Of a DNA stretch of 64,000 nt, positions 32,100-58,166 are shown piece after piece (the first letter of the stretch is position 1; every line of letters starts with the position of its first letter). Position numbers and translations under genes: made by a program. This DNA comes from Candidatus Xenobia bacterium (GTDB lineage Bacteria; Vulcanimicrobiota; Xenobia; Xenobiales; QWHO01): NCBI GenBank assembly GCA_045863235.1, contig BTUM01000027.1:20667-84666 (forward strand), given 5' to 3'. The notes beneath the pieces were generated by a model that saw only the letters and a list, made by a program, of their open reading frames with translations, did not search any database and was not told the DNA's origin.

Positions 32100-32978
32100 T
32101 TACTTGAGCAGCCCCTTCATGGGCTCGAACAGGCTGTCCTGAAGCCCGGCATTCACCTTGACCCCGCGATAGACCCGTGCCTGACGCAGAACCTGGTCGA
32201 CGTAAATCTCCAGCCGCATGGGAAGATAGCGACCGTCTTCGAGTTGCTTGATGTCGCGGTAGACGACCTTCTTTTCACCGGGCCCGCTGGAGCCTTCGCC
32301 CTTGACCTTCACGACGAGTTGCAGGGGCACACGCCGAGCCGGGTCGATCCAGACCCGCGTCGGCAGGTCGGGGTGCTCAGGATTGGAGATCTCCACCACT
32401 TTTACGGGAATGCCCTCGAAAGACTCCGAGCCCACCAGCTTGTAGTCGTCATTGGCGTCGTGGGGATACTTCTGCAGACTGAAGGGGAGCTGCAAGCTCG
32501 GCTGCTGAGTATCGGCCCCCTTCTTGACGGGGTACTGGCCCATGGAGATGAACATCCACATGTTGCTGCCATCGCGAATGATGACGGCTTGCTTACCATC
32601 GAGTTGAGTGCCGGGCTCGTGGAACACGGTATCCACTCGAAGTCGATTGGGAAACTTGTAGTAAACCCGGTCGGTGCCGGAAGGAAGGAGGTTTCCCACC
32701 CCATCCTGCTCGACCAGTTCGCTGCACTCGATCTCCAGAATCAGGTCGCGAATGGGCAATCCCTGAGCTGGCGTGTAGAGATTGTCAACCAGCTGACGGG
32801 CTTCGCTGGAAGAGACTCCGGGGACCGGGCCGGGGACTGGAGAGCCTGTCGCAGTTGGGGAGGCGGCGGGATTGGATGGGCCGGTCACACGACCGCTGGG
32901 GTAGTTTTGAGCCAGAGCTGGCCAGCCGGCCAGACACAAAAGCAGGGCGAGACACAGGACCATCGACCTGGAGTACAC
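32100..32978 (-). CDS. LolA-like / outer-membrane lipoprotein-sorting protein
   Basis: Signal peptide; YYKFPNRLRVD, VWID...PLQ, VNAGLQDSLFE pattern. Confidence 0.7.
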   Translation of the reverse strand: MYSRSMVLCLALLLCLAGWPALAQNYPSGRVTGPSNPAASPTATGSPVPGPVPGVSSSEARQLVDNLYTPAQGLPIRDLILEIECSELVEQDGVGNLLPSGTDRVYYKFPNRLRVDTVFHEPGTQLDGKQAVIIRDGSNMWMFISMGQYPVKKGADTQQPSLQLPFSLQKYPHDANDDYKLVGSESFEGIPVKVVEISNPEHPDLPTRVWIDPARRVPLQLVVKVKGEGSSGPGEKKVVYRDIKQLEDGRYLPMRLEIYVDQVLRQARVYRGVKVNAGLQDSLFEPMKGLLK

Positions 32979-33124: not shown

Positions 33125-33613
33125 GTGAGCGAGCAGGCGGGCGACCAGACACTTCAAGATCCGTCCATGAGCAAGCTGAAGGCACAACTGCCGCAAGAAA
33201 CTGCTCAGGCGCCTGAGCCCGAGCGGGTGAATGAGCGCCTGATTCAGCTGGAGGATGCTGCTCGCAAGACAGCCGAGGGTGAGTGGTCGGCTGAAGAGCT
33301 TGGCGAGTTCCTGGACGGCATCATTCGCATTCTCAACGAGCGCGAGCAGCAGATCCGCGAGATCGAGATTCCCCCTGAGGCCGTGGAGGACTTTCGTGAG
33401 GAGCTCGAGGTCGGCTTCTCCGGTATCCAGCTCTACACCGAGGGCGTCCAGCGCATGCTGCTGTTCGTGGAAGACCCCAACCCGGCGCACCTGGAGGAAG
33501 GGCTCGAGCTGGCGCGCCAGGGCAATGACCACATCAACGAGGCCATGCGCATCAACCGCGAGAATCGCCGCAAGCTCGAAGAAATGTACATCGACGCCTC
33601 CACCATGATGTAA
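33125..33613 (+). CDS. Acidic helical-bundle hypothetical protein
   Basis: SD GGGAGG, GTG start; single copy of the helical unit. Confidence 0.75.
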   Translation: MSEQAGDQTLQDPSMSKLKAQLPQETAQAPEPERVNERLIQLEDAARKTAEGEWSAEELGEFLDGIIRILNEREQQIREIEIPPEAVEDFREELEVGFSGIQLYTEGVQRMLLFVEDPNPAHLEEGLELARQGNDHINEAMRINRENRRKLEEMYIDASTMM

Positions 33614-33681: not shown

Positions 33682-35103
33682 TCAGCTTCGGAAATACTGG
33701 TGCCACATCTCGTTGACGCGTTGCATGGTCATCGCCTGGTTGACGGTCGACTCCTGGAAGGTCTTCATCCAGTAGTCCATGGTTTCTTTCATGATCTTCC
33801 AGCGCTCGGCCTCATGCTTTTGCCGCTCGGCCCAGATCTGCATCCAGATGTCGCGAGCCCCTTCCTGGTCCTGAAGGATCTGCTGCATTCGGCGAGCCTG
33901 GTCAGCCGCGGACATGGTCGGGCCGCCAGGACCACCGGGGCCTCCCGGGCCGGACGGGGGAATCCCGCTCCCGCCGGGCGGAACACCGCCACCACCGGGC
34001 GGGATGCCGCTCCCACCGGGCGGAACGCCGGTCCCCCCAGGGGGAATTCCGCTCCCTCCGGGTACGAATGCGCTGCCCCCAGGAGGCACACCGCCGCCGC
34101 CTCCAGGGGGAAGGCCCGAGCCGCCTCCAGGAGGAGTTGCTCCGCCTCCATTACCGGGCGCCTCGGCCACCGGCGAGGAGAGCAGGCCCGGAGCATTGGT
34201 GGAGCCGAGCAGCTGCTGCGCGGGTGGGCCTTGCAGGGCCAGACCGGACTGCTGGCCGACCAGCTGGTTTCCGCCCGGAGCCACGGGACCGCCGCCGTTG
34301 CCGGCCAGAGTCACCAGGTTCGTCCCGGCGGGAGTGCCGCCCAGGCTGTAGACCAGGCCCCTGCCCGTATTGGCGATCTGCTCCATCAGGCCGTACTGAC
34401 TGAGCTTGTCTCCGTAGGCTTTGAGCTCGGCGTTGCCAGGATCACTGGCCAGTTGAGCCGCGACTTCTTTGCTGGCTGCCTGACGGAAGATATCGATCGC
34501 GGGCGTCTGCTTGCCGGCTGCCCGATCGGCTTCGAACGCCTGGTTCAAAGCATCTCCGAAGGCAGGATTCTTAGCCAGTTGCGGGGGAACGTTGGTGCTG
34601 ATGTCGCCTTCCAGCTGGTTCAGTTGCGCAGAGGCCACATTGATGGCCGCCTGACCAGCGGCCGCGCCACCGGGCAACCCCTGACCCATCAGAGCCTTCC
34701 CCTCGTTCGCGAAGGCTGACTTGAAGCCATCCGGCGCCACCGAGACCAGCTCCACAAGCTGTTTGCCAAGTTGCTCAGGATCAAGAACTTCGGCCTGGCT
34801 CCCCGATTCGGCCCGAGGGGTGTTCTCGCGCCTGACCAGCTCGCGCGACTGGGACTCTTCGCCCTGGCGCGTCTGCTTGGCGCCGGCCTGGCCGGTGAGG
34901 CCCAGGTGGGTCGCGTTCTCCAGGTGCTCAGCGTGACGCTCCTGGTGGCTGAGGGTCACCTCGTCGTTTCGCTGCTCGACGGAGGTTCCGTCCGTCTTGC
35001 GAGTGGTTCCGGTGACCGCAGTCTGGCCCACGTGCTCGGTGCGCTTGACGAGGGCCTGCTGATTCCCGACCGCCGGATTGATGGGACTTCCACTTGTAGC
35101 CAC
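33682..35103 (-). CDS. 473-aa protein with PPGG linker and C-terminal domain homologous to the 81-aa triplicated protein
   Basis: SD AAAGGAG then GTG 35103; C-terminus aligns without gaps (AERWKI..ET, TVNQA, W..Y..S). Confidence 0.82.
   Translation of the reverse strand: MATSGSPINPAVGNQQALVKRTEHVGQTAVTGTTRKTDGTSVEQRNDEVTLSHQERHAEHLENATHLGLTGQAGAKQTRQGEESQSRELVRRENTPRAESGSQAEVLDPEQLGKQLVELVSVAPDGFKSAFANEGKALMGQGLPGGAAAGQAAINVASAQLNQLEGDISTNVPPQLAKNPAFGDALNQAFEADRAAGKQTPAIDIFRQAASKEVAAQLASDPGNAELKAYGDKLSQYGLMEQIANTGRGLVYSLGGTPAGTNLVTLAGNGGGPVAPGGNQLVGQQSGLALQGPPAQQLLGSTNAPGLLSSPVAEAPGNGGGATPPGGGSGLPPGGGGGVPPGGSAFVPGGSGIPPGGTGVPPGGSGIPPGGGGVPPGGSGIPPSGPGGPGGPGGPTMSAADQARRMQQILQDQEGARDIWMQIWAERQKHEAERWKIMKETMDYWMKTFQESTVNQAMTMQRVNEMWHQYFRS
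33950..34145 (-). repeat. Coding 21-bp tandem repeat ([LVI]PPGG[GST]G, ~8-9 units)
   Basis: Visible in the translation: LPPGGGG-VPPGGSA...IPPGGTG-VPPGGSG-IPPGGGG. Confidence 0.8.
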
Positions 35104-35134
35104 GAAGCTCGCTCCTTTATCCCAGGTGTGTGGA

Positions 35135-35190
35135 GTATACCAGCCTGCGCTGAAGGCGTAAACGTCGAGTTTGTTTCCAAACTGTAAACA
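35135..35190 (-). promoter_or_regulatory. Promoter TTTACG-N17-TATACT with upstream box TGTTTCCA-aac-TGTAAACA
   Basis: Read directly; box at 35172-35190. Confidence 0.6.
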
Positions 35191-35319
35191 GATGGCCAAT
35201 CCGATAAATGTTAAAGCCCCGGGCGCCTGGAGCGTGGTCGGGCGTCGCGCAGCCGGAAATTGCCTCCGGGGCGCGACGACCACCCATCCACCGAGCCCAG
35301 AAAGCCCGGCGGCATCGGC

Positions 35320-35565
35320 CTAGCTCTTGATGTAGTCGCTCCATTTGTTGAACATCTTGTCCTGCGTCTTGGCCTGGTTGACGGTCACGTCCTGCTGAAT
35401 CTCGAAAATCTTCGTCTGTGTCTCGCGCAGAATCTTCCAGCGCTCGGCCTGCTGCTTTTGCGTATCGGCCATCATCTGGGTCTGAATGGTCTGGGCCTGC
35501 ATCTGGTCGCTCAGGGCCATCTGGGCGATCGAGGCGGCGTTGGCGGCTCCACCGATGAGTAACAT
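35320..35565 (-). CDS. 81-aa helical protein, copy 3 (candidate pilin/needle subunit)
   Basis: SD AGGAGGG; protein identical to copies 1 and 2. Confidence 0.88.
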   Translation of the reverse strand: MLLIGGAANAASIAQMALSDQMQAQTIQTQMMADTQKQQAERWKILRETQTKIFEIQQDVTVNQAKTQDKMFNKWSDYIKS

Positions 35566-35683
35566 GGTCGGTCCCTCCTGATTCTCTCTCTATCCCTCAA
35601 AAGTAGACGAAAGCTCTGAAAAAAAGCTGAGGGGCCGGCCTTGCGACCGACCCCGCAGAGAAAGCCCCACCCGATACAGGGAC

Positions 35684-35929
35684 TTAGCTCTTGATATAGT
35701 CGCTCCACTTGTTGAACATCTTGTCCTGCGTCTTGGCCTGGTTGACCGTGACGTCCTGCTGAATTTCGAAGATCTTGGTCTGCGTCTCGCGCAGAATCTT
35801 CCAGCGCTCGGCCTGCTGCTTCTGCGTATCGGCCATCATCTGGGTCTGAATGGTCTGGGCCTGCATCTGGTCGCTCAGGGCCATCTGGGCGATCGAGGCG
35901 GCGTTGGCTGCTCCACCAATGAGTAGCAT
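35684..35929 (-). CDS. 81-aa helical protein, copy 2
   Basis: SD GGGAGG; own promoter TTTACT-N17-GATAGA upstream. Confidence 0.88.
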   Translation of the reverse strand: MLLIGGAANAASIAQMALSDQMQAQTIQTQMMADTQKQQAERWKILRETQTKIFEIQQDVTVNQAKTQDKMFNKWSDYIKS

Positions 35930-36139
35930 TGTTTTCGGTCCTCCCGGGTGTGTTATTTTTGACTTCTCTGTCTTGGGACTTCTATCACGCGCCCGGGCCG
36001 GAAAGTAAAGATGCTTGTCTCTGTATCCGGGCAGTTTTCCTGAGGACGGCGGGTGACTTGCCGACCCGGCCGCAAGGCCGGGTCTGCAACCGAAAACGGC
36101 TCGACCTCGCGGCCGAGCCGGCTTGAAGCGGACCTGAGC

Positions 36140-36385
36140 CTAGCTCTTGATGTAGTCGCTCCACTTGTTGAACATCTTGTCCTGCGTCTTGGCCTGGTTG
36201 ACCGTGACGTCCTGCTGAATTTCAAAGATCTTCGTCTGGGTCTCACGCAGAATCTTCCAGCGCTCGGCCTGTTGCTTCTGCGTGTCGGCCATCATCTGGG
36301 TCTGGATGGTCTGGGCCTGCATCTGGTCACTCAGGGCCATCTGGGCAATTGAAGCTGCGTTGGCTGCACCACCGATTAAGAGCAT
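36140..36385 (-). CDS. 81-aa helical protein, copy 1
   Basis: SD GAAGGGG; own promoter TTTACT-N17-GATAAT upstream. Confidence 0.88.
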   Translation of the reverse strand: MLLIGGAANAASIAQMALSDQMQAQTIQTQMMADTQKQQAERWKILRETQTKIFEIQQDVTVNQAKTQDKMFNKWSDYIKS

Positions 36386-36421: not shown

Positions 36422-36479
36422 ATTATCCCATCCCACCTCAACAAAGTAAAGACCAATGTTTGCAAACATTTTGTTAACT
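36422..36479 (-). promoter_or_regulatory. Promoter TTTACT-N17-GATAAT with box TGCAAACA-ttt-TGTTAACT
   Basis: Read directly; box at 36461-36479. Confidence 0.6.
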
Positions 36480-36495: not shown

Positions 36496-36810
36496 TCAAT
36501 CCACGTGCGTCTGGTTCACAACCAGTTTGACGCCTGCCGCCTTGAGGTCTTCCACCAGCTTCTCGTTGTTCTCGTAGAGGGTCAGCACGGTGGCGTCGCG
36601 GGCGGCCGTGACCACCACCTCCATCATTTCCAGAAAGAGCTTGGGATCCACCGAGGGGGACTCGGAAAGGCGCTTGAGCAGGTCGGTGTTCTGGGGACGC
36701 TTCATCTCCCGGGCCCAGCTCTCGAGATACATCCGATTGAAGATGCTGAGCATCGCGGGGGCGCTGAGGCCGAGCTGACCTTCCAGATCGCTGGCGGTGG
36801 CTTCTTCCAT
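36496..36810 (-). CDS. Small acidic hypothetical protein
   Basis: SD GGAGGT; 104 aa; directly follows the aminotransferase gene. Confidence 0.65.
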   Translation of the reverse strand: MEEATASDLEGQLGLSAPAMLSIFNRMYLESWAREMKRPQNTDLLKRLSESPSVDPKLFLEMMEVVVTAARDATVLTLYENNEKLVEDLKAAGVKLVVNQTHVD

Positions 36811-40053: not shown

Positions 40054-42192
40054 TTAGACCTGGACCATTCCCACCGAGTTGACGTTGACTTTTGGGGCGA
40101 TTTCGTTCCAAGAGAGCAGCACCAGGTTGGGGAAGGAGCGCTCGGTCAATTTGCGCAGGGCCGAGCGAACCGGGGGTGAGCACAACAAGATCGGCTGGAG
40201 GCCGCGCTCCTGCAACTGCTGCACCTGGCCCGAGATGGCCTGCAGGATCTCCTGGCCGGTATTGGGGTCCAGGGTCAGGAACGAGCCCGCCTCAGTGCGC
40301 TGGATGGCCGACTGGATGACCTGCTCGATGGACGGGTCGAGCGTGATCACGTTGATCGTGCCCTCATTGTTCATGTACTCTTTGCAGATCACCCGGCTGA
40401 GAGCCACCCGCACGAACTCGGTGAGCATCTCAGGGTCTTTGGTGATGTGCACGTTGTCGGCCAGTGTCTCCAGAATGGTGACCAGGTCGCGGATGGAGAC
40501 CCGTTCTTTGACCAGATTCTGGAGCACCTTCTGAACTTCGCCCAGGGTCAGGGCGTCGGGGATGACCTCCTTGACCACGGCCGGGTGGGTCTTCTTGACG
40601 GTGTCGATGAGGGCCTGAACCTCCTGGCGGCCGAGCAGCTCGTTGGCGTGGCCGCGCACGACCTCGGTCAATTGGGTCGCCACCACGCTCACCGGGTCGA
40701 AGATCATACAACCGAGCCGCTCGGCGTCGCCACGCTGCTCGGGCGAGATCCAGACGCCGGGCATGCCGTAGGTCGGGTCGACCGTCTTGGTGCCGCGCAG
40801 ATTCTTCAGCTTCTCTTCCGGGCCGATGGCCAGGAACTGATTGATCTGAACCTCGCCCTGAGCCACCTCGATCTCCTTGATCTTGATGACGTAGGCATTG
40901 GGCTTGAGCTGCAAGTTGTCGCGGAAGCGCACACCGGGAACCACGATACCGAGCTCGAGGGCGATGTGACGACGAATCGAGGTGACGCGCTCGAGTAGCT
41001 TGGCGCCCTGGTTGGGGTCCACCAGAGAGAGGAGGCCGCGTCCCACTTCCAGCGAGATGGGGTCGACCTGCATCAACTGCACGACGCTCTCTGGCTTCTT
41101 GACCTCGGCCTTCTTCTTCTGGTCTTGCTCCTGGGCCTGAACGTCGGCAACCTGGACCGACTTCTTGGTCAGAATCGTGCCCACGAAGAACATCAGGCCG
41201 CCCAGGCAGAAGAAGGGAAGTGGCGGGAAGGCAAACAGCCCTACCACTCCCAGACCCCCGAGCAGGATCATAAAGCCGGCAGCCATTTTGAGCGCGCCCG
41301 GCTGGGCGGTGATCTGGCGGGTCACGTCGGAGCCCAGGTTGGAGTCGGAAGCGGCGCGCGAGACCACCATACCCATCGAGGTCGACATCAAGAAGGCGGG
41401 AAGCGTGGTGATGAGGCCGTTTCCGATGGAAAGAATGGCGTAGATGTTGATGGCGTGGCCAGCCGACATCTTGTGGTAGAGCACGCCCACCAGGATGCCG
41501 CCGATCACGTTCACGACCATGATGACGATGGCCGCCATCGCGTCGCCTTTGACGAACTTGCCGGCACCGTCCATAGCGCCGTAGAAGTCGGCTTCCTTTT
41601 CGATCTGGCGCCGTTTGTTCTTGGCGCCTTCGGCATCGATCAGGCCAGCGTGCAGGTCGGCGTCGATGGCCATCTGTTTACCGGGCATCGCGTCCAGGGT
41701 GAAGCGGGCGGCCACCTGGGCGATACGCTCGGCACCGTTGGTGATCACCATCAGCTGAATGATGATCAAGATGATGAACATGATGAAGCCGACGACCAGG
41801 TTGCCGCCTACCACGACCTCACCGAAGGCGGGGATCAGGTGGCCGGCGCCGATGGGCTTCTTGCTGACCGGGTCGAGCACGTTGCCGTGCAGCAGGATCA
41901 TACGCGTGGCCGACACGTCCAGGGCCAGCCGGAAGAGGGTGGCCACCAGCAGCAGGGTCGGGAAGACGGCGAATTCGAGGGGCTCGGCGATGTAGATCGA
42001 GATCAGGATGGTGATCAAGGAGCCGGCGATGTTCACCACCAGCAGAAGGTCCAAGAAGTCGGGCGGCATGGGCACGATCAGCATCATCACGATGCCGATC
42101 ACGACCACGGCGATGCCGATGTCTGAGAACTTTAAAAGCTTGAGTAATGGATGGTCGGGTAAGCCGTCAGCTGGGTTCGGTTGTCCGGCCAT
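40054..42192 (-). CDS. flhA: Export gate FlhA (SctV family)
   Basis: FPTLLLVATLFRLAL, ARFTLDAMPGKQMAIDADL, FYGAMDGAGKFVKGDA. Confidence 0.97.
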   Translation of the reverse strand: MAGQPNPADGLPDHPLLKLLKFSDIGIAVVVIGIVMMLIVPMPPDFLDLLLVVNIAGSLITILISIYIAEPLEFAVFPTLLLVATLFRLALDVSATRMILLHGNVLDPVSKKPIGAGHLIPAFGEVVVGGNLVVGFIMFIILIIIQLMVITNGAERIAQVAARFTLDAMPGKQMAIDADLHAGLIDAEGAKNKRRQIEKEADFYGAMDGAGKFVKGDAMAAIVIMVVNVIGGILVGVLYHKMSAGHAINIYAILSIGNGLITTLPAFLMSTSMGMVVSRAASDSNLGSDVTRQITAQPGALKMAAGFMILLGGLGVVGLFAFPPLPFFCLGGLMFFVGTILTKKSVQVADVQAQEQDQKKKAEVKKPESVVQLMQVDPISLEVGRGLLSLVDPNQGAKLLERVTSIRRHIALELGIVVPGVRFRDNLQLKPNAYVIKIKEIEVAQGEVQINQFLAIGPEEKLKNLRGTKTVDPTYGMPGVWISPEQRGDAERLGCMIFDPVSVVATQLTEVVRGHANELLGRQEVQALIDTVKKTHPAVVKEVIPDALTLGEVQKVLQNLVKERVSIRDLVTILETLADNVHITKDPEMLTEFVRVALSRVICKEYMNNEGTINVITLDPSIEQVIQSAIQRTEAGSFLTLDPNTGQEILQAISGQVQQLQERGLQPILLCSPPVRSALRKLTERSFPNLVLLSWNEIAPKVNVNSVGMVQV

Positions 42193-42209
42193 AGATTACG
42201 TCCTTTCCG

Positions 42210-43310
42210 TCATCGCCGCGCCCCGGTCTTGCCGCGCCGCCGCTTCATCTCGCGTTTTCGTTTCAACTTGATCACGTAGGCCAGCACCTCGGCCACCGCC
42301 TTGTAGAGCTCGGTGGGGATGGCCTGGCCCACCTCGCAGGCTCCGAACAGCGTTCGCGCCAGCTCGACGTTCTCGATGATGGGTACGTCGTGGTCCTCAG
42401 CCTTGACCTTGATCTGCTGGGCCACCAGGTTCTCCCCCTTGGCCACGACCATGGGAACCGGATCGACCCCGGTTTCGTACTTCAGGGCAATGGCCAGATG
42501 GGTAGGGTTGGTCACCACCGCCGAGGAGTTGGGCACCTCCTCCATCATGCGGCCCTGGGCGCCCTGGCGCATGAGCTGGCGCATCTTGGCCTTGACCTGA
42601 GGGTTCCCCTCGGTATCCTTATACTCGTCTTTCAACTCTTGCATGCTCATGCGCATCTGCTTCATGAACTGCTTGTACTGGAACAAGTAGTCGAGAATGG
42701 AGAGAGCCGTCATGCCGATCAGCACCTGGAAGGTGAGGCGCACCAGAATCGTCTTCACCAGGGCGATGGTCTGGTTGAGGTCCATCTGCGGGGAGGCAGC
42801 GAACTTGGGCAACTCGCCCTTGACGCACTTGTAGCAGATCCAGCCGATAACCACCACTTTCAGGATCTGCTTGACCAGTTCCATGACCGACTTCATGGAG
42901 AAGATCCGCTTGAACCCCTCGATGGGGTTGATCTTGCTCAAGGACGGCTTGAGGGGCTCGACCGTAAACAGAAACTTGACCTGGGCTACGTTGGCCAGAA
43001 TGGCCATGATGAACACCGAGGCCAGCAGTGGGGCCAGCACGATGAGCACGGTGCCCATCATCAACATCGATTCGCCCATCAGGTTGCGCTCGTTCATCTG
43101 GAAAGTGGGGATCAGCATCCAGATGTACTTGGTGTAGTCGATGATGCGGGCGAGCATCATCTTGCCGCAGGTCAGCAGCACCCCGTAGCAGGCCAGCAGA
43201 AGCAGCGTGGAGATGATCTCCTGGCTCTTCAGTACCTGGCCTTTCTTGCGCGCTTCCTGGAGCTTATGCTCGGTCGGTTCCTCGGTCTTGTCACTGTCGC
43301 TGCCGCCCAC
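42210..43310 (-). CDS. flhB: Export switch protein FlhB (SctU family)
   Basis: KTEEPT...ARKKGQ, EGNPQVK, NPTH autocleavage motif. Confidence 0.97.
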   Translation of the reverse strand: MGGSDSDKTEEPTEHKLQEARKKGQVLKSQEIISTLLLLACYGVLLTCGKMMLARIIDYTKYIWMLIPTFQMNERNLMGESMLMMGTVLIVLAPLLASVFIMAILANVAQVKFLFTVEPLKPSLSKINPIEGFKRIFSMKSVMELVKQILKVVVIGWICYKCVKGELPKFAASPQMDLNQTIALVKTILVRLTFQVLIGMTALSILDYLFQYKQFMKQMRMSMQELKDEYKDTEGNPQVKAKMRQLMRQGAQGRMMEEVPNSSAVVTNPTHLAIALKYETGVDPVPMVVAKGENLVAQQIKVKAEDHDVPIIENVELARTLFGACEVGQAIPTELYKAVAEVLAYVIKLKRKREMKRRRGKTGARR

Positions 43311-43332
43311 GCTGCCTCACCTCCTCTCGGGC

Positions 43333-44130
43333 TCAATCTGGGGCCATCAAACGGATGGTCTGCATGATCTGATCCTGATTGACCGCGAACTGCTGAGTCA
43401 GCAGCTGGCAAACGTAGGGAAGCCCTACCGTCAACAAGCTCAAACCGATACCTATATTCATTGGAAAGCTTAACATGAAAACGTTCATCTGAGGAGCCAC
43501 GCGGGCCAGCAATCCCAGAGCGATCTGGCCGATGAAGAGGGCTGCCAGAGCGGGCGCGGCAATCTGAATACCGATAGAGAAGACGTCCCCGGCTGCGGAG
43601 ACAAAGCCCTCTACGATGTTCCCGGGCATCTGAAAGTGAGTAACCGGCACGACCTGGAAGCTCTCCCAGATCGCGATCACCATCTTGTGGTGGCCGTCGA
43701 GCAACAGATAGAGCTGCATGGCCAGATAGAAGTGCAAACGACGGATCAGGTTGATGGCGCCGTGGCTGGAGGGGTCGGCCGAGGCGGCCACCGAGAGGCC
43801 CAGTTGGATGTCCAGCATCTCGCCCCCGAACTGGGCCGCTGCCAGCACCATGAAGGAGATGAACCCGATGGCCAGTCCCACCCCGACCTGGGTGAGAAGG
43901 GCTCCGAAAAAAGTCCGAGCTTCCATCACCTCGTAGATGTTCTCGGGCACCGGCACGGTAGGGAAGACGCAGCAAGTCATGGCCACCGCCGTCCCGATGC
44001 GAATCTGCGTGTTGAAATGCTTGGAACCCCAGATGGGGGCCTGCACCATGATCAGCACGATGCGAGCAAAGGTCAGGCACCAGACGATCAGGAGCGCGTA
44101 AGCCTGCTGGTAGCCATTGGGCTCCCCCAT
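43333..44130 (-). CDS. fliR: Export protein FliR
   Basis: LDIQLGLS, LDGHH, LARVAPQMNVF. Confidence 0.94.
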   Translation of the reverse strand: MGEPNGYQQAYALLIVWCLTFARIVLIMVQAPIWGSKHFNTQIRIGTAVAMTCCVFPTVPVPENIYEVMEARTFFGALLTQVGVGLAIGFISFMVLAAAQFGGEMLDIQLGLSVAASADPSSHGAINLIRRLHFYLAMQLYLLLDGHHKMVIAIWESFQVVPVTHFQMPGNIVEGFVSAAGDVFSIGIQIAAPALAALFIGQIALGLLARVAPQMNVFMLSFPMNIGIGLSLLTVGLPYVCQLLTQQFAVNQDQIMQTIRLMAPD

Positions 44131-44423
44131 CAGTGGGGGCCCACCTTGGCGATGGTGGAGAAGACCTCCCGGATGAACGTGCCCAGGTTGCCGATCAGCC
44201 AACTCCCGCACAGCACCATGGAAAGGAACGTAACCACGATCTTGGGCACGAAGCCCAGCGTCTGCTCCTGCACCTGGGTGGTGGCCTGCAGGATGCTGAT
44301 GACCAGACCGACGGCCAGGGCCGAGATCAGCATCGGCGCCGACAGGACCAGAATGAGGTAGAGCGCCCGGGTGCACAGGCCCATCACGAAGGTATCGGTG
44401 AAGATCTCGGCGGCCAGGATCAT
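44130..44423 (-). CDS. fliQ: Export protein FliQ, copy 2
   Basis: LQATTQVQEQTLGFVPKI. Confidence 0.93.
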   Translation of the reverse strand: MILAAEIFTDTFVMGLCTRALYLILVLSAPMLISALAVGLVISILQATTQVQEQTLGFVPKIVVTFLSMVLCGSWLIGNLGTFIREVFSTIAKVGPH

Positions 44424-44719
44424 TTGGGTCCCATCCTCTCGATGCAGCCCAGAATGCGCACCGTGAACTCGACGCACGTTCCGGCAATCCAGGGCCCATA
44501 CATCAGCACCGACAAAAACGTGGCCACGATCTTGGGGACGAAGGAGAGGGTCTGCTCTTGCACCTGAGTGGCCGCCTGCAGCACGCTGATTAGAATACCC
44601 ACCAGGATGGCTGCCAGCAGCATCGGCGCCGACAATACCAACATGTTGCGAAGAGCTTCGGTGATCATGCCCAGCATGAACTGCTTGGTGAAGAATTCTT
44701 CAACGGCCAGCAAGACCAC
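44420..44719 (-). CDS. fliQ: Export protein FliQ, copy 1
   Basis: LQAATQVQEQTLSFVPKI. Confidence 0.93.
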   Translation of the reverse strand: MVLLAVEEFFTKQFMLGMITEALRNMLVLSAPMLLAAILVGILISVLQAATQVQEQTLSFVPKIVATFLSVLMYGPWIAGTCVEFTVRILGCIERMGPK

Positions 44720-44786
44720 GGCGGCTCCACGCTCCTTCCCTCAGTTTCCGGTCAGTCTCTCGAAACCCCGGCCCTGCCGGGGCGCA

Positions 44787-45566
44787 TCATTGTTCGATTC
44801 GATTGAAACTGTTAACCAGGCCGTTGATGATGATGTGCCAACCGTCGATGCTGACAAACATCAACAGCTTGAAGGGGAGCGAAATGGTCATCGGGCTGAG
44901 CATGAACATACCCATCGACATCAGCACCGAGGCCACGATCATGTCGATCACCAGAAATGGTATGTAAAGTAAGAAGCCAATCTCGAACGAGGTCTTGATC
45001 TCGGAGAGGATGTAGGAAGGCAGCAACACGTAGAAGGGGACGCTCTTGCGGTTATCCACCTTCATCTTGCTCAAGCCCAGAAAAAGACCCAGGTCCTTGT
45101 CTCGAGTTTGGGCCAGCATGAACTCCTGCAGGGGCGCGACGAACTTTTTGAAGGCCTCGGCCTGCTTGATATCCCCTTTGTAGTAGGGCTGAATTGCTTC
45201 CCGGTTCATTTTCTCACCCACCGGCGCCATGATGAACATGGTCAGGAACAACGAGAGAGCCATCAGCACCTGGGTAGGCGGCACCTGCTGGGTGCCCAGA
45301 GCAGTGCGCAAGAAGGACAGTGTCACCGTCACCCGGATGAAGGCGGTCGTCATGACCAGGAGGTAGGGCGCCAGGGACAGCGTCGTGAGCATCAAGCTCA
45401 CCTGGATGAAGGTCGATACCTCGGCCTTCTCCTCCATCGGTTTGCCGTTGATGGTGATGTCCGGCAGTTGGATGGGGGGTAACTGAGCCCAGGCCTCACG
45501 GGTCAGGACACCGACCAGGGCGACCATTCCCAGAGCCCAGAGCCACTTTTTGCGGGTGCTGCTCAT
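44787..45566 (-). CDS. fliP: Export protein FliP
   Basis: Signal peptide; LRTALGTQQVPP, PFLVIDMIVASVLMSMGMFMLSP, LPFKL..F...DGW. Confidence 0.96.
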   Translation of the reverse strand: MSSTRKKWLWALGMVALVGVLTREAWAQLPPIQLPDITINGKPMEEKAEVSTFIQVSLMLTTLSLAPYLLVMTTAFIRVTVTLSFLRTALGTQQVPPTQVLMALSLFLTMFIMAPVGEKMNREAIQPYYKGDIKQAEAFKKFVAPLQEFMLAQTRDKDLGLFLGLSKMKVDNRKSVPFYVLLPSYILSEIKTSFEIGFLLYIPFLVIDMIVASVLMSMGMFMLSPMTISLPFKLLMFVSIDGWHIIINGLVNSFNRIEQ

Positions 45567-45576
45567 AAGCCTCTCC

Positions 45577-46269
45577 TTACTTCCGGGCACCCAACCCGGG
45601 GATGATGGACAGGTAGTGGCGCAAAATCTCTCCGTGGGGAGCCGGCATCGCCGGGGGCACAGTCGCCTCGGCATTGGACTCGGACTCGGCCTTCGGCTCG
45701 GGCATCGCGAGCTGATCGGAACCAAGCTCGCACAGGGTGTTAACGTTCTGCTCGGTCTGGCCGACCACCAGGTACTTCTTGCCCACCCGCACCAGGCTGA
45801 TGCTGGCTCCCTGAGCCAGGCTCTGTCGCTCGAGCACTTCGAGCTGGCGCAACTTCTTGCCGGGCCCAACCCCCGGCAGCCAGCGGGCCACCATGCGCAG
45901 GCTGGCGTAAGCCAGAAAGCCGACCAGGAAGAGAATGATGACCATCTGCTGCAACTTTTGCACGAAGATGGAGCTGTTGGAGGTTTGCCCCTGAGCGTCG
46001 GGGCTCCACGCGGGGGCTTGGGAAGTCGGGAGGGCCTGGGGAGCGGGAGAGGGGGCGGGGGAGACGACGAACGGTGGAGCCGGAGGGACCGAACTGGCCG
46101 TGGGTGAGGGCGCCACCAGGTCGCCCAAGGTCCGTTGAGGGGGGGGCTGAGCCCGACCGCCGCGGCTCAGCGAGAGCAAGCACAAAGACAGCACCGCCAA
46201 CAGCAAAAACGAGCCCAGCCCCCGTCGCAGGTGCCTGGAATCCCAGCGGCGCAGGCGCTTGAGGTTCAC
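45577..46269 (-). CDS. fliO: FliO/FliZ-like protein
   Basis: Position before fliP; TM then LEVLERQSL...LVRVGKKYLVVG. Confidence 0.8.
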   Translation of the reverse strand: MNLKRLRRWDSRHLRRGLGSFLLLAVLSLCLLSLSRGGRAQPPPQRTLGDLVAPSPTASSVPPAPPFVVSPAPSPAPQALPTSQAPAWSPDAQGQTSNSSIFVQKLQQMVIILFLVGFLAYASLRMVARWLPGVGPGKKLRQLEVLERQSLAQGASISLVRVGKKYLVVGQTEQNVNTLCELGSDQLAMPEPKAESESNAEATVPPAMPAPHGEILRHYLSIIPGLGARK

Positions 46270-46565
46270 GGGGAAATCAACTCGGTTATGCGCACGGCGT
46301 AGTTTCCGTCGATCTCGACCACCTCTCCGCGAGCGATCAAAGTTCCGTTGACCAGAAGGTCGACCGGCTCGCCCTGCTCCTTGTCCAGCTCAATCACGCT
46401 ACCTGCGGCGATTTTGAGGATATCGCGCACGGTGCGCATGCCGCGACCCATCTCGGCCTCGACGATGAAGGGAACGTCGTAAAGCATGTTGAGGTCCTCG
46501 CGCTCGCGAAAGACCGAGGGCGGGCCACTACTTCGTCGGCGGGGGACCGGCGTAAAGTCGTCCAT
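46266..46565 (-). CDS. fliN: FliN-like SpoA-domain protein, copy 2
   Basis: GSVIELDK..GEPVDLLVNG..IARGEVV. Confidence 0.9.
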   Translation of the reverse strand: MDDFTPVPRRRSSGPPSVFREREDLNMLYDVPFIVEAEMGRGMRTVRDILKIAAGSVIELDKEQGEPVDLLVNGTLIARGEVVEIDGNYAVRITELISP

Positions 46566-46566
46566 C

Positions 46567-46869
46567 TTACTTGACGATCTCGGTGATGCGCACTCCGTAC
46601 TGGCCGTCGATCTCGACCACCTCGCCACGGGCGATGCGCTTGCTGTTGACCAGAATGTCGATGGGCTCACCAGCTTCCTTGTCGAGCTCGATCACTGAGC
46701 CCACGGTAAGCTTGAGGATGTCCTTGACCTGACGACGAGCCTTGCCAAGCTCGGCCTGAACGATCAACTGGACGTCCTTGAGGAGGTCGATGCTGCTGGG
46801 CGAGCCTTGAGCCTGAGCGTCTGCCTGCAGCATGCCGAATTGAACGGCGCGGGGGCCCTGGTCACTCAT
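46567..46869 (-). CDS. fliN: FliN-like SpoA-domain protein, copy 1
   Basis: LLKDV, GSVIELDKEAGEPIDILVN...IARGEVV. Confidence 0.92.
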   Translation of the reverse strand: MSDQGPRAVQFGMLQADAQAQGSPSSIDLLKDVQLIVQAELGKARRQVKDILKLTVGSVIELDKEAGEPIDILVNSKRIARGEVVEIDGQYGVRITEIVK

Positions 46870-47839
46870 CGTATTCTTCGTCTCCCTCTTGCAGCACTTT
46901 GAGCACCTTGGCCGCCATGCGCCCATCCTTGATGCCGGGTTGGCCGAGGAACTTGGTCTTGTCGTTCACCTTGATCCGCAACGGGGCGCTGATCTCGGTA
47001 TCCAGGCGAATGGTATCGCCGACCTCGATGGTCAGAAGATCCTGAAACAGGATCTCAGCCCGCCCGAGGCTGATGGCCACGGGCACTTTGGCCATCTCCA
47101 GGCTCCGTCCGAAAATGGGCGGGCCAGGAGCGGCCGTGGCACCCGTGCCGGAATCGGTGCGGGTGAGGATGTAGCGGTCGAAGGAAGCCTGCGGAATGGC
47201 GTTCTTGAGGTAGCGGAAGGGCAGGCACACGTTCACCAGACCCTGGGCGTGGGCCACGTCGGCCTGGAACGAAGTGACCACCATCGTCTCCGAAGGGGGG
47301 GCGATGTGCACCGCCATCGGGTTGAACTCCAGGCCCACGAAGGCAGGCTTGGTGTCGGGTCGGATCTCCCTCCAGGCTTCACCGTAGGCTTCCAGCATCT
47401 TGAGCAGGGGCTTTTGCAGGATCACCTTCTCGAGATCCGTGAAGAACGGCCGCACCTCTTCTCGGGGGGGAGCACCCTTGCCGCCCATCAGTTTGTCGAA
47501 GAGCGCAAAGGACAGGTCGAAGTCGATGTCCATGAAGGCCAGCACATCGGGCTCGGCCTTGAAGACGAGGATAGGCGTGGGGTCAGGCAACATGTTGAGG
47601 TAGGAATGGTAGCTGCGCGGCTTGACGCTCACCATTTCCATCTGGAAACGCGTCTGCAACAAGGGGGCCAGGGCCGTCACGACGCTTTCGGCAAAGCCGA
47701 CGAAGAGCTTTTCGAGAAAGCGCTGCTGATCCGCCGAGAACTTGTCCATCTGGCGGAAATCGTACGCGCTCGCGCCTTCGTAGCGGCGGCGCTGGGCCGA
47801 CCGCATCACGTCGTTGAAGCTTCCCACACTTTCCCGCAA
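46862..47839 (-). CDS. fliM: FliM lacking the N-terminal CheY-binding peptide
   Basis: YDFR..DKFS, LMGGKG, EFNP, C-terminal SpoA domain; TTG 47839 after GGAGG. Confidence 0.9.
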   Translation of the reverse strand: MRESVGSFNDVMRSAQRRRYEGASAYDFRQMDKFSADQQRFLEKLFVGFAESVVTALAPLLQTRFQMEMVSVKPRSYHSYLNMLPDPTPILVFKAEPDVLAFMDIDFDLSFALFDKLMGGKGAPPREEVRPFFTDLEKVILQKPLLKMLEAYGEAWREIRPDTKPAFVGLEFNPMAVHIAPPSETMVVTSFQADVAHAQGLVNVCLPFRYLKNAIPQASFDRYILTRTDSGTGATAAPGPPIFGRSLEMAKVPVAISLGRAEILFQDLLTIEVGDTIRLDTEISAPLRIKVNDKTKFLGQPGIKDGRMAAKVLKVLQEGDEEYDE

Positions 47840-48016
47840 GTAGCGACCTCCACAGCCCATCCCCCCACCGAGTCAAGGGGCTTCGAGCCTTGTTGAGTGC
47901 TTTCCCGCCCCGGCAAGATTATAGCACTGACGCCAGGTCAGCACGATGAAACATTCGGCTCTCACGGAAACAGCCCAGGCCTTCCGGCCTGGGCACGCTT
48001 ACCGCGGGACTTGAAG

Positions 48017-48832
48017 TTAGCGGACGAGACCCAGCGCGGACTGGGTCAGTTTGTCCATGGCGCGGAAGGCGGCCATGTTCGCTTCGTAGTTCTGCTTGGC
48101 CATACCGATGGCGGCGGCCTGCTGGGCGAAATCGACGTTGGCCAGTTCGAGGCTACCGGGAGCCACGCTACCCAGGGCACCCTGACCGGCCACACCGACA
48201 ACCGAGCCACCCGAGTGCTCGGACTCGGCGAAGGTCGTCGTTCCGGTCTTCTTCAAGGCGCTGGGATTGGCGAAAGAGGCCACACCCACCTGATAGAGCG
48301 GCGTTGAGGTGGTGATGGTCTGGTTGGTCACCGGGTCGGTCAGAGTGGACTCGCCGTAGAGCTTGCCCGTCTCGTCGAAGTGGAACCCTGTGTATTTCCC
48401 GGCATACAGCTTGGTCTGGGGATCCAGCGAAAGGTCAATGGCCCCGAGGTCACCCGAGATGTTGCCCTGCGCGTCAAGCTTGAAGCCCTGCACGCGCTTG
48501 CCGTCTTGCATACAGAGCTGCCCGTTCTGCCAGGTGAAGCGGCCGTCTCGGGTGTAGTGATTCTTGACGCCATCGGAAACCATGAAGAAACCCTGTCCGT
48601 TCATCGCCAGGTTGGTCGGCGTCTGGGTTTTGAAAATCTGACCCTGGCTAAAGACGATGCCGCCGTGGCGGGTCTGGGCGCCACCCGACATCGTCTGGTT
48701 CATGATGTCAGAGAACTGAACGGTTTCCGCCTTGTAACCCGGAGTGAACTGGTTCTTCAAGTTCTCCGAGTAAGTGTTCAGCATCTCCTGGTTCTGCATG
48801 ATCGAGCTGACCTGATAATTGAAATCAAACAT
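48017..48832 (-). CDS. Short hook / distal rod protein (FlgE/FlgG family)
   Basis: NLKNQFTPGYK, NLAMNGQGFF, YTRDGRF, FANPSAL, LELANVD; 271 aa. Confidence 0.88.
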   Translation of the reverse strand: MFDFNYQVSSIMQNQEMLNTYSENLKNQFTPGYKAETVQFSDIMNQTMSGGAQTRHGGIVFSQGQIFKTQTPTNLAMNGQGFFMVSDGVKNHYTRDGRFTWQNGQLCMQDGKRVQGFKLDAQGNISGDLGAIDLSLDPQTKLYAGKYTGFHFDETGKLYGESTLTDPVTNQTITTSTPLYQVGVASFANPSALKKTGTTTFAESEHSGGSVVGVAGQGALGSVAPGSLELANVDFAQQAAAIGMAKQNYEANMAAFRAMDKLTQSALGLVR

Positions 48833-48947
48833 CCCGCGAAGCGTCCTCCTTCTTGTTGAACCCTCTGTGTGTGTTTCTACAGAACTGCGCGCCCTTGACT
48901 TCCCGTTCTCATTCTAGACCTGTATCGTTGCCGCAGGTTTACCGCGG

Positions 48948-48966
48948 TGTTAACACGATGTTAACA
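48948..48966. promoter_or_regulatory. Box TGTTAACA-cga-TGTTAACA upstream of the flgE/G-fliM-flhA unit
   Basis: Perfect tandem palindromes, 11-bp period; -10 TAGAAT on the minus strand at 48911-48916. Confidence 0.7.
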
Positions 48967-49059
48967 TGGTCGCCCCAAACCGGCCGGGTAGGACGAAGAG
49001 GCCCGCGACAGCACACGGTTTGCCGTGTACCCGCGGGCCCCCGAAGCCCACCTCGGTGC

Positions 49060-49980
49060 TCAGACCGTCTCGACGAGCTTGACGGTAACCTCGTTGAGCC
49101 GAACGCCCCTGTCGGCCACCTTGGAGCGCAGCTCTTCCTCGTTCTCTTCGATCACTTCGCGGGTGGTGCGCGAGGTGGTCTCAAACTCGGCTTTGATCCC
49201 GTCCTTGCCGTGCACGAGCTTGATCCGCAAATCGCCAAGATACTCGGGATTGAGCTTCAAGCTGAGCTCGGTCTTGTTGGCCAGGTTGCGCACCTCGATG
49301 TGCTGCAGAACCTGGTCGATGACCAACTGTCGGTTCTGACGCGCGTCTTCAGCCTGATTCTGAGCTCTGACCTCGGTCGACAACTGGACCGAGCGCAGCT
49401 CGCGCGCCAGGTCTTTCTGGGGCTGGCTCTCACCCACCAGTTTCTCGAACTCTTTGCCGTCGCGCTCTTGCTCTCGCTCACGCACCAACTGATCGAGTGC
49501 GCTGGAGACCTGGTTGCGCGCGCCATCGCGCGTGACCATGGCCAGTTGGGTGAAGGAGAGGTCGCGGAACTGCAGTCCTCGCTCGGTCAACATCCCTCGC
49601 AGGTCGTGCAGGCCAACAGAGGAAAACTCGGCCAATCGCATCGACTGTTTTTCGCCCAGGGACAAGGTGTCGGGATTCTTGTAGGCCAGATCGAAAAGGT
49701 AGCCGTTCAGCTTGCTCATGTGCTTCTGTTGAAGCTTCTGGTCGAGGTTCTCGGCCCGCTCAGCCTCGGCTTTTCTGGCGGATTCCTTGGGCTCGTCCTT
49801 CTTGGACGTCTTTTCATCAGAGATGATCGTACGGGTCTTGCCGGATTCTTCCCTATCCCCCGTGGCTTTGTCCAGCTCCCTCGAGAAAGCGTCGGCATCG
49901 CCTTTCTCTCTGGTGGTCTTGGTGCTGGTCGGTGAAGCCCCGGAGGTACCGACTATGGTGGCGATCAGCGGATTTTCCAT
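49060..49980 (-). CDS. fliK: Length-control protein FliK-like
   Basis: Disordered N-terminus; C-terminal LKLNPEYLGDLRIKL (PxxLG) domain; syntenic position. Confidence 0.85.
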   Translation of the reverse strand: MENPLIATIVGTSGASPTSTKTTREKGDADAFSRELDKATGDREESGKTRTIISDEKTSKKDEPKESARKAEAERAENLDQKLQQKHMSKLNGYLFDLAYKNPDTLSLGEKQSMRLAEFSSVGLHDLRGMLTERGLQFRDLSFTQLAMVTRDGARNQVSSALDQLVREREQERDGKEFEKLVGESQPQKDLARELRSVQLSTEVRAQNQAEDARQNRQLVIDQVLQHIEVRNLANKTELSLKLNPEYLGDLRIKLVHGKDGIKAEFETTSRTTREVIEENEEELRSKVADRGVRLNEVTVKLVETV

Positions 49981-50019
49981 TCAAACACCCCTCATTGCGA
50001 TTTTTCTCCTGAGAAAAGC

Positions 50020-50664: not shown

Positions 50665-50788
50665 GCCGGGTTCCTCCTTCGCTATCCGGGACTGCGATGG
50701 CAACACCACGTTAAGCCGGGTGGTAGGCCGGAGGAAGTCCAGGGGGCGATTGGGCGCATACTCAGTATAGCTGTCCAGCCTCCCGGGG

Positions 50789-53641: not shown

Positions 53642-53651
53642 GGCCAGCCAC

Positions 53652-54641: not shown

Positions 54642-54690
54642 GGCAGAGCCTCCTTTCCTGGTCCACTTCGCCCGCTCGGGGCCCGATCTC

Positions 54691-55557: not shown

Positions 55558-55607
55558 AGCAAGACGAGAGGGTTGCCCCTCTCGTTCTCGCGATTCAGCC
55601 GGAAAGG

Positions 55608-57242: not shown

Positions 57243-57324
57243 CGTAGGTCCTCTCCTTCCGATCCTCTCGATCCCCAAAACCCGGCTCTATCTGTGTGGC
57301 CCCCGGGCAAGGCCTGACTTCAGG

Positions 57325-57648: not shown

Positions 57649-57667
57649 TGCCTGTTCCTCCTAAATC

Positions 57668-58147: not shown

Positions 58148-58166
58148 TGGTCAGCCTCCTTCGGAT

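Follow-up and report, generated by a model that had tools for sequence, protein, structure and literature searches.

Results

Three tandem genes encode one identical small helical protein

The stretch of DNA analysed here (the window, 64,000 nucleotides of contig BTUM01000027.1 from a Candidatus Xenobia bacterium) carries on its minus strand three tandem genes for one identical protein of 81 amino acids (aa), near a gene cluster for a flagellar-type type III export machine. The initial annotation had taken the product for a candidate needle or pilin subunit that the machine exports in place of flagellin. The genes and the signals around them are listed below.

36140..36385, minus strand: copy A of the 81-aa gene, which leads the array and lies closest to the gene orf104 (open reading frame (ORF) and translation; positional orthologue in loci L031, L032 and L033)
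35684..35929, minus strand: copy B of the 81-aa gene (ORF, translation, codon comparison)
35320..35565, minus strand: copy C of the 81-aa gene (ORF, translation, codon comparison)
36422..36450, minus strand: sigma-70-like promoter site 5' of copy A, TTTACT-17-GATAAT with extended TG (consensus match only)
36097..36120, minus strand: terminator-like hairpin 3' of copy A with 10 pairs, 8 of them G-C, and a T-rich tail (hairpin scan)
35631..35654, minus strand: terminator-like hairpin 3' of copy B with 10 pairs, 8 of them G-C, and a T run (hairpin scan)

The three ORFs gave the same translation, and the DNA differed as the initial annotation had described. The copies began with ATG CTC TTA ATC (A), ATG CTA CTC ATT (B), and ATG TTA CTC ATC (C) and ended with TAG, TAA, and TAG, respectively. 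Over 246 nucleotides (nt) including the stop codon, 19 differences were found between A and B, 23 between A and C, and 13 between B and C. All of these were silent (one in the stop codon), against a background of about 46 synonymous and 197 non-synonymous sites. In an alignment with 70-135 nt of flank, the 246 coding bases aligned without a gap, and the likeness did not extend beyond the stop codon or, on the 5' side, the ribosome-binding region, with unrelated spacers between the genes. The protein was rich in Gln (14), Ala (10), Thr, Lys, and Ile (7 each), and Met (6), and contained no Pro or Cys. A promoter of the form TTTACT-N17 had been proposed for two of the copies. The site of copy A passed a consensus scan for sigma-70-like sites, in which one site was found and 0.5 was expected from shuffles; the second site, 5' of copy B, was present but ended in GATAGA and failed the scan.

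The triplet was also present in three further genomes (L031, L032, and L033). Copy A differed from the A copies of these genomes at 5, 8, and 16 nt and from any B or C copy at 19-30 nt, and is therefore their positional orthologue. Copies B and C were closer to each other within the window genome (13 differences) than to their counterparts in L033 (16-20), and the single aa difference between the window and L033, K80R, was shared by the three L033 copies. The array is therefore old and has been kept identical by very strong purifying selection plus some concerted evolution. The initial annotation had offered purifying selection or gene conversion, and both have left their mark, with no non-synonymous change between the copies. 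An assembly artefact, which it had already discounted, was ruled out by the triplets in the other genomes and the positional orthology of copy A.

The protein belongs to a conserved family without a name in Pfam or NCBIfam

At a cut-off of E 1e-3, a word-indexed search with the 81-aa protein yielded 199 proteins, 44-142 aa in length. Most of them were about 78 aa long, had no Pfam domain, and were nameless or 'hypothetical'; their sources were metagenome-assembled genomes (MAGs) labelled Eremiobacterota, Vulcanimicrobiota, Xenobium, or Bruticola, or mislabelled bins. An exhaustive profile search of 1.84 billion representatives gave 436 proteins at E 1e-3 or better. Sixty aligned small homologues were 62-90% identical to the window protein, and nearly all of the 18 invariant columns lay in the C-terminal half, which carried the motif ...ERWKIL..TQTKIFEIQQDVTVN.AKTQDK.F.KW..YI... 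Nine matches were found in the genome of the window (8.36 Mb, 97.6% complete). Besides the triplet, contigs C69, C78, and C3 each had a small gene, C74 had a 133-aa form, and C12 had a weak match; the ninth was the end of a 533-aa ORF next to the triplet.

No relative of the 81-aa protein was found above threshold in Pfam, NCBIfam, or the sequences of the PDB. A profile search of the PDB returned CcdA at E 0.38 as the sole match, and NCBIfam gave nothing better than E 0.017 for this protein or for four neighbouring products (orf104, the 533-aa protein, orf162, and a LolA-like protein). The sequence was hydrophilic, with no toxin-family match and no catalytic motif in Pfam and NCBIfam. Judged by sequence, the 81-aa protein falls outside every defined family of pilins, needle proteins, or flagellins. 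In the published literature that was searched, no description was found of the protein family, of the linked machine lineage, or of a flagellin-less type III system in the phylum; a preprint on a 'hat-shaped structure' (10.1101/2021.09.03.458937) is, in its accessible part, concerned with ordinary flagellated bacteria.

A single predicted helix, a likeness to Hrp pilins, and signs of high expression

The AlphaFold2 (AF2) model, built from the 60-row alignment, was one continuous helix from residue 4 to residue 80 (77 residues) with a mean pLDDT of 82.6. The first ten residues were modelled with the least confidence, and the values for residues 41-70 were about 90. The earlier description of a helical protein without Pro, Cys, or signal peptide fits the model and the composition. 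The suggested resemblance to SctF needle proteins did not survive, since the modelled helix was unbroken rather than a hairpin; no Gly or Pro occurs after residue 6, which makes a needle-type hairpin unlikely. The first charged residue stood at a median position of 17 in the 60 members, and at position 14 or later in 55 of them, compared with about 4 in 19 neighbouring proteins. Type III export signals are typically uncharged, disordered N-termini rich in Ala, Ser, Asn, and Gln.

The initial annotation had also named Hrp pilins as look-alikes, and this comparison held up better. The nearest named clusters of the ESM Atlas were two of HrpA_pilin, with scores of 0.91 and 0.90 (180 and 174 of 256 features; the family on 23-24% of members), and an HrpE-like cluster with a score of 0.88 (171 of 256 features; the family on 55% of members). 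The top Atlas match may be the cluster of the protein itself. A Pfam scan of the 60 members at E up to 10 placed HrpA_pilin (PF09589) in 15 of them, and its best E value of 4e-4 was the lowest among the 25 best-listed of 37 families. When these 15 were scanned again at E up to 1, 11 matched PF09589 in a constant register, with protein residues of about 10-60 aligned to profile positions 28-79 of 96. The general traits of HrpA_pilin and HrpE-like proteins were present as well, namely small size, helicity, absence of a signal peptide, and a variable N-terminal part followed by a conserved C-terminal part. On sequence grounds the protein falls short of membership in the HrpA_pilin family, and its functional likeness to Hrp pilins is a lead on which two methods of different kind agree.

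Parts of the region 33600-42300 were contained in 24 public runs from 14 studies, 21 of which were recorded as RNA. Expression was read from four RNA runs stored as contigs, in which word depth is a poor measure and sums related organisms. In run X5 the strain itself seemed to be present (0-3 differences per 250-490-nt contig). The contig running from the end of A across the spacer into the start of B had a word depth of 27.1 and that of the 533-aa gene 19.1, compared with depths of 3-5 in six contigs from the aminotransferase, MetH, and FlhA genes. In runs X10 and X13, which contained relatives 90-95% alike, the triplet reached 96.6 versus about 7, and 444-676 versus 4-8, for the gate genes. 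Run X1 was flat, with depths of 1.3-5.4 outside one bin, and uncovered bins in the other runs carry no weight. The deeper triplet contigs agree with the dosage need that had been proposed for the three copies, and are a hint of high expression of the triplet, consistent with a structural or secreted product.

The neighbouring machine is flagellar in type and lacks the outer parts of a flagellum

40054..58697, minus strand: flagellar-type type III cluster (Pfam; NCBIfam for a 271-aa protein)

The cluster encoded FlgB, FlgC, FliE, FliF, two FliG-like proteins, FliH, FliI, FliJ, a lytic transglycosylase (SLT), and a FliK-like protein. It also encoded a 271-aa FlgE-like mini-hook, FliM, two FliN, FliO, FliP, two FliQ, FliR, FlhB, and FlhA. 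FlhA, FlhB, the FliP/Q/R gate, FliH/I/J, FliF, the FliG/M/N rings, and the rod are the parts of a flagellar-type export apparatus, and the cluster contained the single complete export gate of the window genome. The end of flhA lay 3.7 kb upstream of the triplet with three genes between, so that the machine, described earlier as adjacent, is near the triplet and not directly beside it; the arrangement is nevertheless conserved across the phylum, as set out below.

Only four proteins of the window genome contained Flg_bbr_C, the C-terminal domain of axial proteins. In this 97.6% complete genome, searches that were positive on control genomes gave no hit for Flagellin_N, FliD_C, the MotB plug, FlgI, or FlgH, and Flagellin_C gave one sub-threshold match, elsewhere than in the 81-aa protein. 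A Pfam scan found no secretin gene within the cluster. Compared with a complete flagellum, the linked machine lacked the stator, the P and L rings, the hook-filament junction, the cap, and flagellin. The predicted machine consists of rings, gate, ATPase, rod, mini-hook, and ruler, with no recognisable stator, outer rings, cap, or filament protein. Because flagellin, FliD, the MotB plug, FlgI, and FlgH were all without a match, 'in place of flagellin' was a fair description. The organism is probably a diderm.

Genes for FliQ (Bac_export_3), FliN (FliMN_C), and the FliG-like protein were each duplicated in tandem on the minus strand (intervals 44130-44719, 46266-46926, and 53652-55557), which is unusual for fliQ and fliN. 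The second FliG-like ORF had the N and M domains only. The mini-hook gene (48017-48832) came after the FliK-like gene and retained only the N- and C-terminal parts of FlgE (NCBIfam); a paralogue with 38% identity was located elsewhere in the genome (C94:9093-9752), and contig C9 carried a second FliF. In addition to its one full-length FlhA, the genome encoded five stand-alone paralogues of the FlhA cytoplasmic C-terminal domain, which forms the substrate-chaperone docking ring, with 26-36% identity (C80:28144-29142, C3:26982-27962, C1:377640-378527, C107:14600-15469, and C106:14947-15843). The paralogue on C106 adjoined a paralogue of the lytic transglycosylase.

On contig C74 (locus L014, features at 407-4124 and 16002-17699), the contig end carried a second FliK-like gene (484 aa) together with FlgF-like, FlgG-like, and rod-binding (FlgJ N-terminal) genes. 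About 12 kb from the FliK/FlgF/FlgG-like genes, and near the 133-aa paralogue of the small protein, this contig encoded a protein with CHAT and FHA/YscD cytoplasmic domains. The 133-aa paralogue was not counted as linkage to type III genes, as it lay about 9 kb from the FlgF/FlgG/FliK-like genes with unrelated genes between.

The small genes follow flhA across the phylum and mark a separate FlhA lineage

The comparison covered 201 genomes of the phylum Eremiobacterota, including that of the window. The small-protein family was present in 51, FlhA in 189 (a tally that includes one unpublished genome, G177), and Flagellin_N in 64. All 51 family-positive genomes contained FlhA, and in at least 34 of them flhA was followed on its own strand by a family member no more than about 6 kb away, often at less than 1 kb. 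The distribution differed between the families of the phylum. In f2 the small protein and FlhA were found in 19 of 19 genomes and flagellin in none of the 19; in f14 the corresponding counts were 5, 6, and 0 of 6. Some other families carried all three together. In the largest family, f15, the small protein occurred in 0 of 114 genomes, FlhA in 103, and flagellin in 40.

Seventy-six loci were compared with 10-kb flanks; one of these, L106 from Patescibacteria, proved to be a chance match to a solute-binding protein and was dropped from the family loci. A block of FliP-(FliR)-FlhB-FlhA-(MetH)-(aminotransferase)-orf104-small gene(s) was shared by 22 of the 76, and tandem arrays of two or three small genes recurred in many genomes. 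These data support the link to the type III machine, which is conserved as synteny throughout the phylum and goes beyond proximity.

A tree of 35 FlhA sequences, obtained by a quick maximum-likelihood search only, with the careful search incomplete, placed the 15 family-linked rows in one split (SH-aLRT 99), 14 other FlhA of the phylum in a second (100), and six divergent sequences of a third type, from f15 and f20, in a third (100). Near-duplicate or truncated linked loci were left out of the tree (L031, L050, L058, L073, L084, L085, L086, and L105). Three of the 14 other FlhA had flagellin on the same contig. Judged by these splits and by the flagellin beside some of the other FlhA, the family-linked machine is a lineage of its own that has been inherited vertically and, in some genomes, occurs together with true flagella.

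The third FlhA lineage (loci L107-L112 in genomes G011, G036, G142, G041, G071, and G093) was strongly divergent and was often the sole FlhA of genomes that lacked both flagellin and the small-protein family. In these six genomes no orf104 or small helical gene was found downstream of flhA. The genes that followed resembled SecD/SecF, as judged by eye from the N-termini, and no family search was made. The cultured Vulcanimicrobium alpinus showed no flagella and lacked a flagellin gene according to the accessible part of its description (PMC9758169).

The genes around the triplet

36496..36810, minus strand: orf104 (104 aa), immediately 5' of the small genes, a candidate chaperone or partner in export
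33682..35283, minus strand: ORF of 533 aa, whose true start is uncertain, with a linker rich in Gly and Pro, immediately 3' of copy C
36817-38163, minus strand: class-III aminotransferase, between flhA and orf104, at the same position in 12 related loci
38176-40035, minus strand: homocysteine S-methyltransferase/MTHFR fusion (MetH-like), between flhA and orf104, present in 4 related loci
33125..33613, plus strand: orf162, conserved helical protein without a Pfam or NCBIfam family, with a homologue on the opposite strand in 13 related loci
32100..32978, minus strand: LolA-like / MucB_RseB-like gene (weak Pfam LolA_like match, E 3.3e-4), conserved in 11 loci

The product of orf104 was acidic (pI 4.75) and encoded by a single copy in the window genome. 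Its 150 homologues were all nameless or 'hypothetical', and clustering of the neighbouring ORFs placed it in 26 related loci, four of them without FlhA in range. The AF2 model had three helices (pLDDT 86, pTM 0.71). No known family was found in Pfam or NCBIfam, and a Foldseek search of the PDB returned no hit at E 1e-3 or better; the best VIA-align hits among 48,161 chains (Z 7.4) were generic helical bundles, within the stated noise for helical proteins. Among the features of type III chaperones, small size, acidic charge, and conserved adjacency were present, and no chaperone family or fold was recognised. Its size, its charge, and its constant position ahead of the small genes make orf104 a candidate type III chaperone or partner. 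A complex prediction of orf104 with the 81-aa protein scored 0.00 without controls, and counts neither for nor against binding.

The place directly after flhA also raises the idea that the 81-aa protein is a small exported regulator or a cytoplasmic accessory, that is, an anti-sigma factor like FlgM or a coiled coil like FliJ or FlgN on the FlhA ring. The size is similar to that of FlgM, and a disordered N-terminus with a helical C-terminal half would suit such a role. A stoichiometric regulator, however, would hardly need three identical, separately terminated copies plus three to five more per genome, nor RNA contigs of such depth. No Pfam match to FlgM, FliJ, or FlgN was found, the cluster already has a FliJ, and the fusions described below, to RHS, VgrG-like, Sec-signal, and membrane proteins, would not be expected. 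We regard this idea as highly improbable.

The last 75 residues of the 533-aa ORF (nt 33685-33909) were a diverged copy of the 81-aa module (41% identity, E 5e-13). A longer gene ending in the module, 1.4-2.3 kb downstream of a small gene, recurred in 15 of the 76 loci, and the 533-aa protein is a candidate accessory, tip, or cap protein. Residues 100-340 gave no match in the ESM Atlas. A conserved 269-aa gene found after the small gene in 15 loci was considered as a counterpart and rejected, being unrelated to the 533-aa protein and without a Pfam family.

The aminotransferase was found at loci L031, L033, L045, L050, L055, L056, L058, L065, L070, L088, L091, and L105. The insertion of the aminotransferase and MetH genes into a secretion operon is odd, and their products might modify the substrate. 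About 1 kb past the LolA-like gene lay a gene for an NlpC/P60-LysM peptidoglycan hydrolase (30450-31259, minus strand), a homologue of which was kept in nine related loci. Together with the SLT gene of the cluster, it points to local cell-wall remodelling.

The conserved module also ends larger proteins

Of 288 family proteins examined, 113 had at least 130 aa. The module ended within five residues of the C-terminus in 78 of these, started in the first 30 residues in seven, and was internal in 28. Pfam, at E 1e-4 or better, left 46 of 63 longer relatives without a family. The others included 11 with TIR (accompanied in one by a trypsin-like peptidase and TPR), two with CHAT, and one each with VgrG-type spike domains (the full-length cluster mate has 804 aa; P0182/P0288), with an SLH-DUF6531-RHS architecture of 1,938 aa in which the module occupied 1875-1937, with an autotransporter carrying the module in its passenger (P0255), and with Ig-like domains. 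In P0133 and P0206 the module directly followed the RHS core at the C-terminal tip. By eye, other longer relatives had Sec or lipoprotein signal peptides, one had an apparent PEP-CTERM tail, and two were polytopic membrane proteins.

These fusions show that the module can function attached to cargo, in some cases outside the cytoplasm. Since the stand-alone form lacks any signal peptide, this indirectly favours its export by a route other than Sec. As the module ends many larger proteins, it would seem to be more than a plain structural subunit, and also a docking or delivery module.

The position of the module suggests an adaptor, in which the helix would be a self-associating coiled coil and the small proteins a scaffold or hub recruiting TIR, CHAT, trypsin, RHS, VgrG-like, and membrane proteins; the place beside flhA would then reflect co-regulation or use of the gate, and not the building of a filament. 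Effector-associated adaptor domains of bacterial conflict systems are of this kind. The frequent C-terminal position fits such a role, the N-terminal partners (TIR, CHAT, VgrG-like, SLH-RHS, autotransporter, and Ig-like) are of kinds typical of effectors or delivery systems, a single long helix of extreme conservation suits a binding surface that must match many partners, and several paralogues per genome lie away from flhA. An adaptor, however, leaves unexplained why at least 34 of the 51 genomes keep a copy directly behind flhA together with a dedicated upstream partner gene, why the linked FlhA form their own clade, why the N-terminus is uncharged and variable, and why three identical genes, terminated separately and covered by deep RNA contigs, should be required. 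None of the nine matches in the window genome was seen to be a TIR, CHAT, or RHS fusion. We consider the adaptor unlikely as the main role of the 81-aa protein.

The same fusions may be read as those of an effector or toxin module, whose conserved helix would act on another cell or on the envelope, with orf104 as an immunity or holding protein. One payload would then travel by type III in the small form and by RHS, VgrG, autotransporter, or Sec in the fused forms, as in polymorphic toxin systems. The module indeed lies at the tip after the RHS core, after the VgrG-like spike, and in the autotransporter passenger, and a small acidic partner gene stands alongside. In a Desulfitobacterium isolate, an 88-aa stand-alone relative (L098 9983-10249, 47% identity) lay between two genes for Rce1-like CPBP intramembrane proteases, a family often tied to bacteriocin immunity, and we take this context to be more like a bacteriocin locus than a secretion locus. 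A 108-aa ORF without a known family directly followed the Desulfitobacterium copy; it was considered as a relative of orf104 and proved unrelated on comparison, which counts against an immunity role. Against a toxin also stand the 62-90% identity of the 60 small homologues from MAGs across the phylum, unlike fast-evolving toxins, the tandem identical copies without interleaved immunity genes (one orf104 for six to eight copies per genome), the hydrophilic sequence with neither catalytic motif nor toxin-family match, and N-terminal TIR and CHAT partners, which are not delivery domains. On balance an effector is decidedly unlikely.

Outside the phylum, Acidobacteriota MAGs (L093, L094, and L096) contained forms of 160-170 aa (compare proteins P0127 and P0140) in which a shared N-terminal domain of about 90 aa, without a known family, preceded the module. 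These forms stood among housekeeping genes.

Discussion

The explanation that we consider best, with confidence a little short of even, is that the 81-aa protein is the type III-exported, self-assembling main late substrate of a flagellum-derived machine without motor and flagellin, comparable to an Hrp pilin. The machine would be a distinct Eremiobacterota lineage that lost, or never had, the stator, the P and L rings, the cap, and flagellin. Each of the three genes would be transcribed at a high level from its own promoter, as is partly shown, and the uncharged, disordered first 17 or so residues would be the export signal. The acidic orf104 product may keep the protein soluble in the cytoplasm or deliver it to the FlhA ring. 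Once rod, mini-hook, and the FliK-like ruler have switched the gate, the 81-aa protein would pass through the channel. Outside the cytoplasmic membrane, the near-invariant C-terminal halves could pack helix on helix into a homopolymer, possibly a pilus-like or periplasmic filament or bundle comparable to the Hrp pilus. Larger proteins ending in the module, such as the 533-aa neighbour, may dock onto the polymer or co-assemble with it.

Several observations weigh against an exported filament. FlhA was missing within 10 kb at 54 of the 76 loci, although some of these were cut short and many were second-site tandem arrays. Most copies in a genome sit elsewhere, some among BamA, Skp-like, and BamB-like genes (arrays from eight or nine related genomes, counted as one observation), and f15 and f20 keep a flagellin-less FlhA without the small-protein family. 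The initial annotation had held that homologues in genomes without type III genes would speak against it. None occurred within the phylum; outside it, FlhA was present in four of five family-positive genomes and missing from G201, the completeness of which is unknown, and the Acidobacteriota and Desulfitobacterium relatives were not beside type III genes. A module that ends TIR, CHAT, VgrG-like, and RHS proteins is a poor fit to a simple filament; in the RHS protein it sits where the toxin domain usually is, and the TIR and CHAT forms have no signal peptide. The pilin likeness has limits of its own. Atlas scores of 0.9 were also reached by 4-10% of shuffled proteins, and the best PF09589 score was 21.5 bits (E 4e-4, two relatives), below the gathering cut-off of 25 bits. 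The matched stretch is rich in Gln, Ala, Ser, and Thr, so that composition may count, and the protein of the window itself gave no PF09589 match at E up to 10. The predicted single helix is also unlike solved needle subunits. Finally, with no P and L rings found in a probable diderm, an outer-membrane route is not evident from the gene content, and any structure might stay in the periplasm.

Comparison with known systems shows where a pilin-like substrate would fit. Hrp pilins (HrpA PF09589, HrpE-like PF28047, and HrpY) are likewise small (60-115 aa) and almost wholly helical, without Cys and without a Sec signal, and HrpE has a variable N-terminal part and a conserved C-terminal assembly part. 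The machine here, however, is flagellar in type (FliG, FliM, FliN, FliO, FlgB, FlgC, FliE, FliK-like, and FlgE-like) and not an Hrp injectisome, the conservation is extreme and not diversifying, and the module also ends many larger proteins. SctF needle subunits (MxiH, PrgI, and YscF) are similar in size and helicity. They are exported by type III after a ruler-controlled switch, need their C-terminus for assembly, and fold as a helix-turn-helix hairpin with a P-x-x-P turn, whereas the 81-aa protein is modelled as one 77-residue helix and has no match in Pfam (E up to 0.01) or among PDB sequences.

Flagellin (FliC) resembles the 81-aa protein in its proposed export role, as a late substrate of a flagellar-type gate with tandem copies and expression far above that of the gate genes. 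Its N-terminal export region is likewise uncharged, and its terminal helices form the core of the filament. It differs in length (250-600 aa) and in having a D0/D1 pair in place of one helix; the 81-aa protein matched neither Flagellin_N nor Flagellin_C, and matches to the cap FliD, the hook-filament junction proteins, and the stator were missing from the window genome. In Buchnera, flagellin-less flagellar basal bodies are used as exporters, and there too gate, rings, and rod are kept without flagellin or motor, which points to a role in protein export. The difference is that here a separate paralogous lineage occurs beside true flagella in some genomes and has a dedicated, conserved candidate substrate family. 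The WXG100/LXG proteins of type VII secretion offer an analogy in organisation only, with multi-copy small helical proteins by secretion genes and the module fused to large polymorphic proteins; no sequence relation was found in Pfam, the module here is C-terminal and not N-terminal, and the machine is type III.

A wider form of the filament proposal would combine it with the docking role of the module. It would describe a third kind of type III nanomachine besides the flagellum and the injectisome, vertically inherited, flagellum-derived, and motor-less, which builds a polymer from a single-helix subunit of about 80 aa without a relative among solved structures. The module would double as a universal docking tag, by which TIR, CHAT, RHS, VgrG-linked, and envelope proteins mount on the structure or pass through it. 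We put this forward tentatively and hold it to be doubtful as a whole.

Even if the filament idea is wrong, a phylum-wide, highly expressed family of short, soluble-looking, and highly conserved proteins still stands without annotation. If it is right, it would name the missing product of a widespread flagellin-less flagellar-type machine, a question that the accessible part of the work on the flagellin-less Vulcanimicrobium alpinus (PMC9758169) also raises. A single long helix would be a new architecture among the few polymers built by type III machines, and the lineage would represent a route from flagella to secretion or attachment devices that is independent of the origin of injectisomes. 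The module on TIR, CHAT, RHS, and VgrG-like proteins would then be a new trafficking or docking domain for conflict systems.

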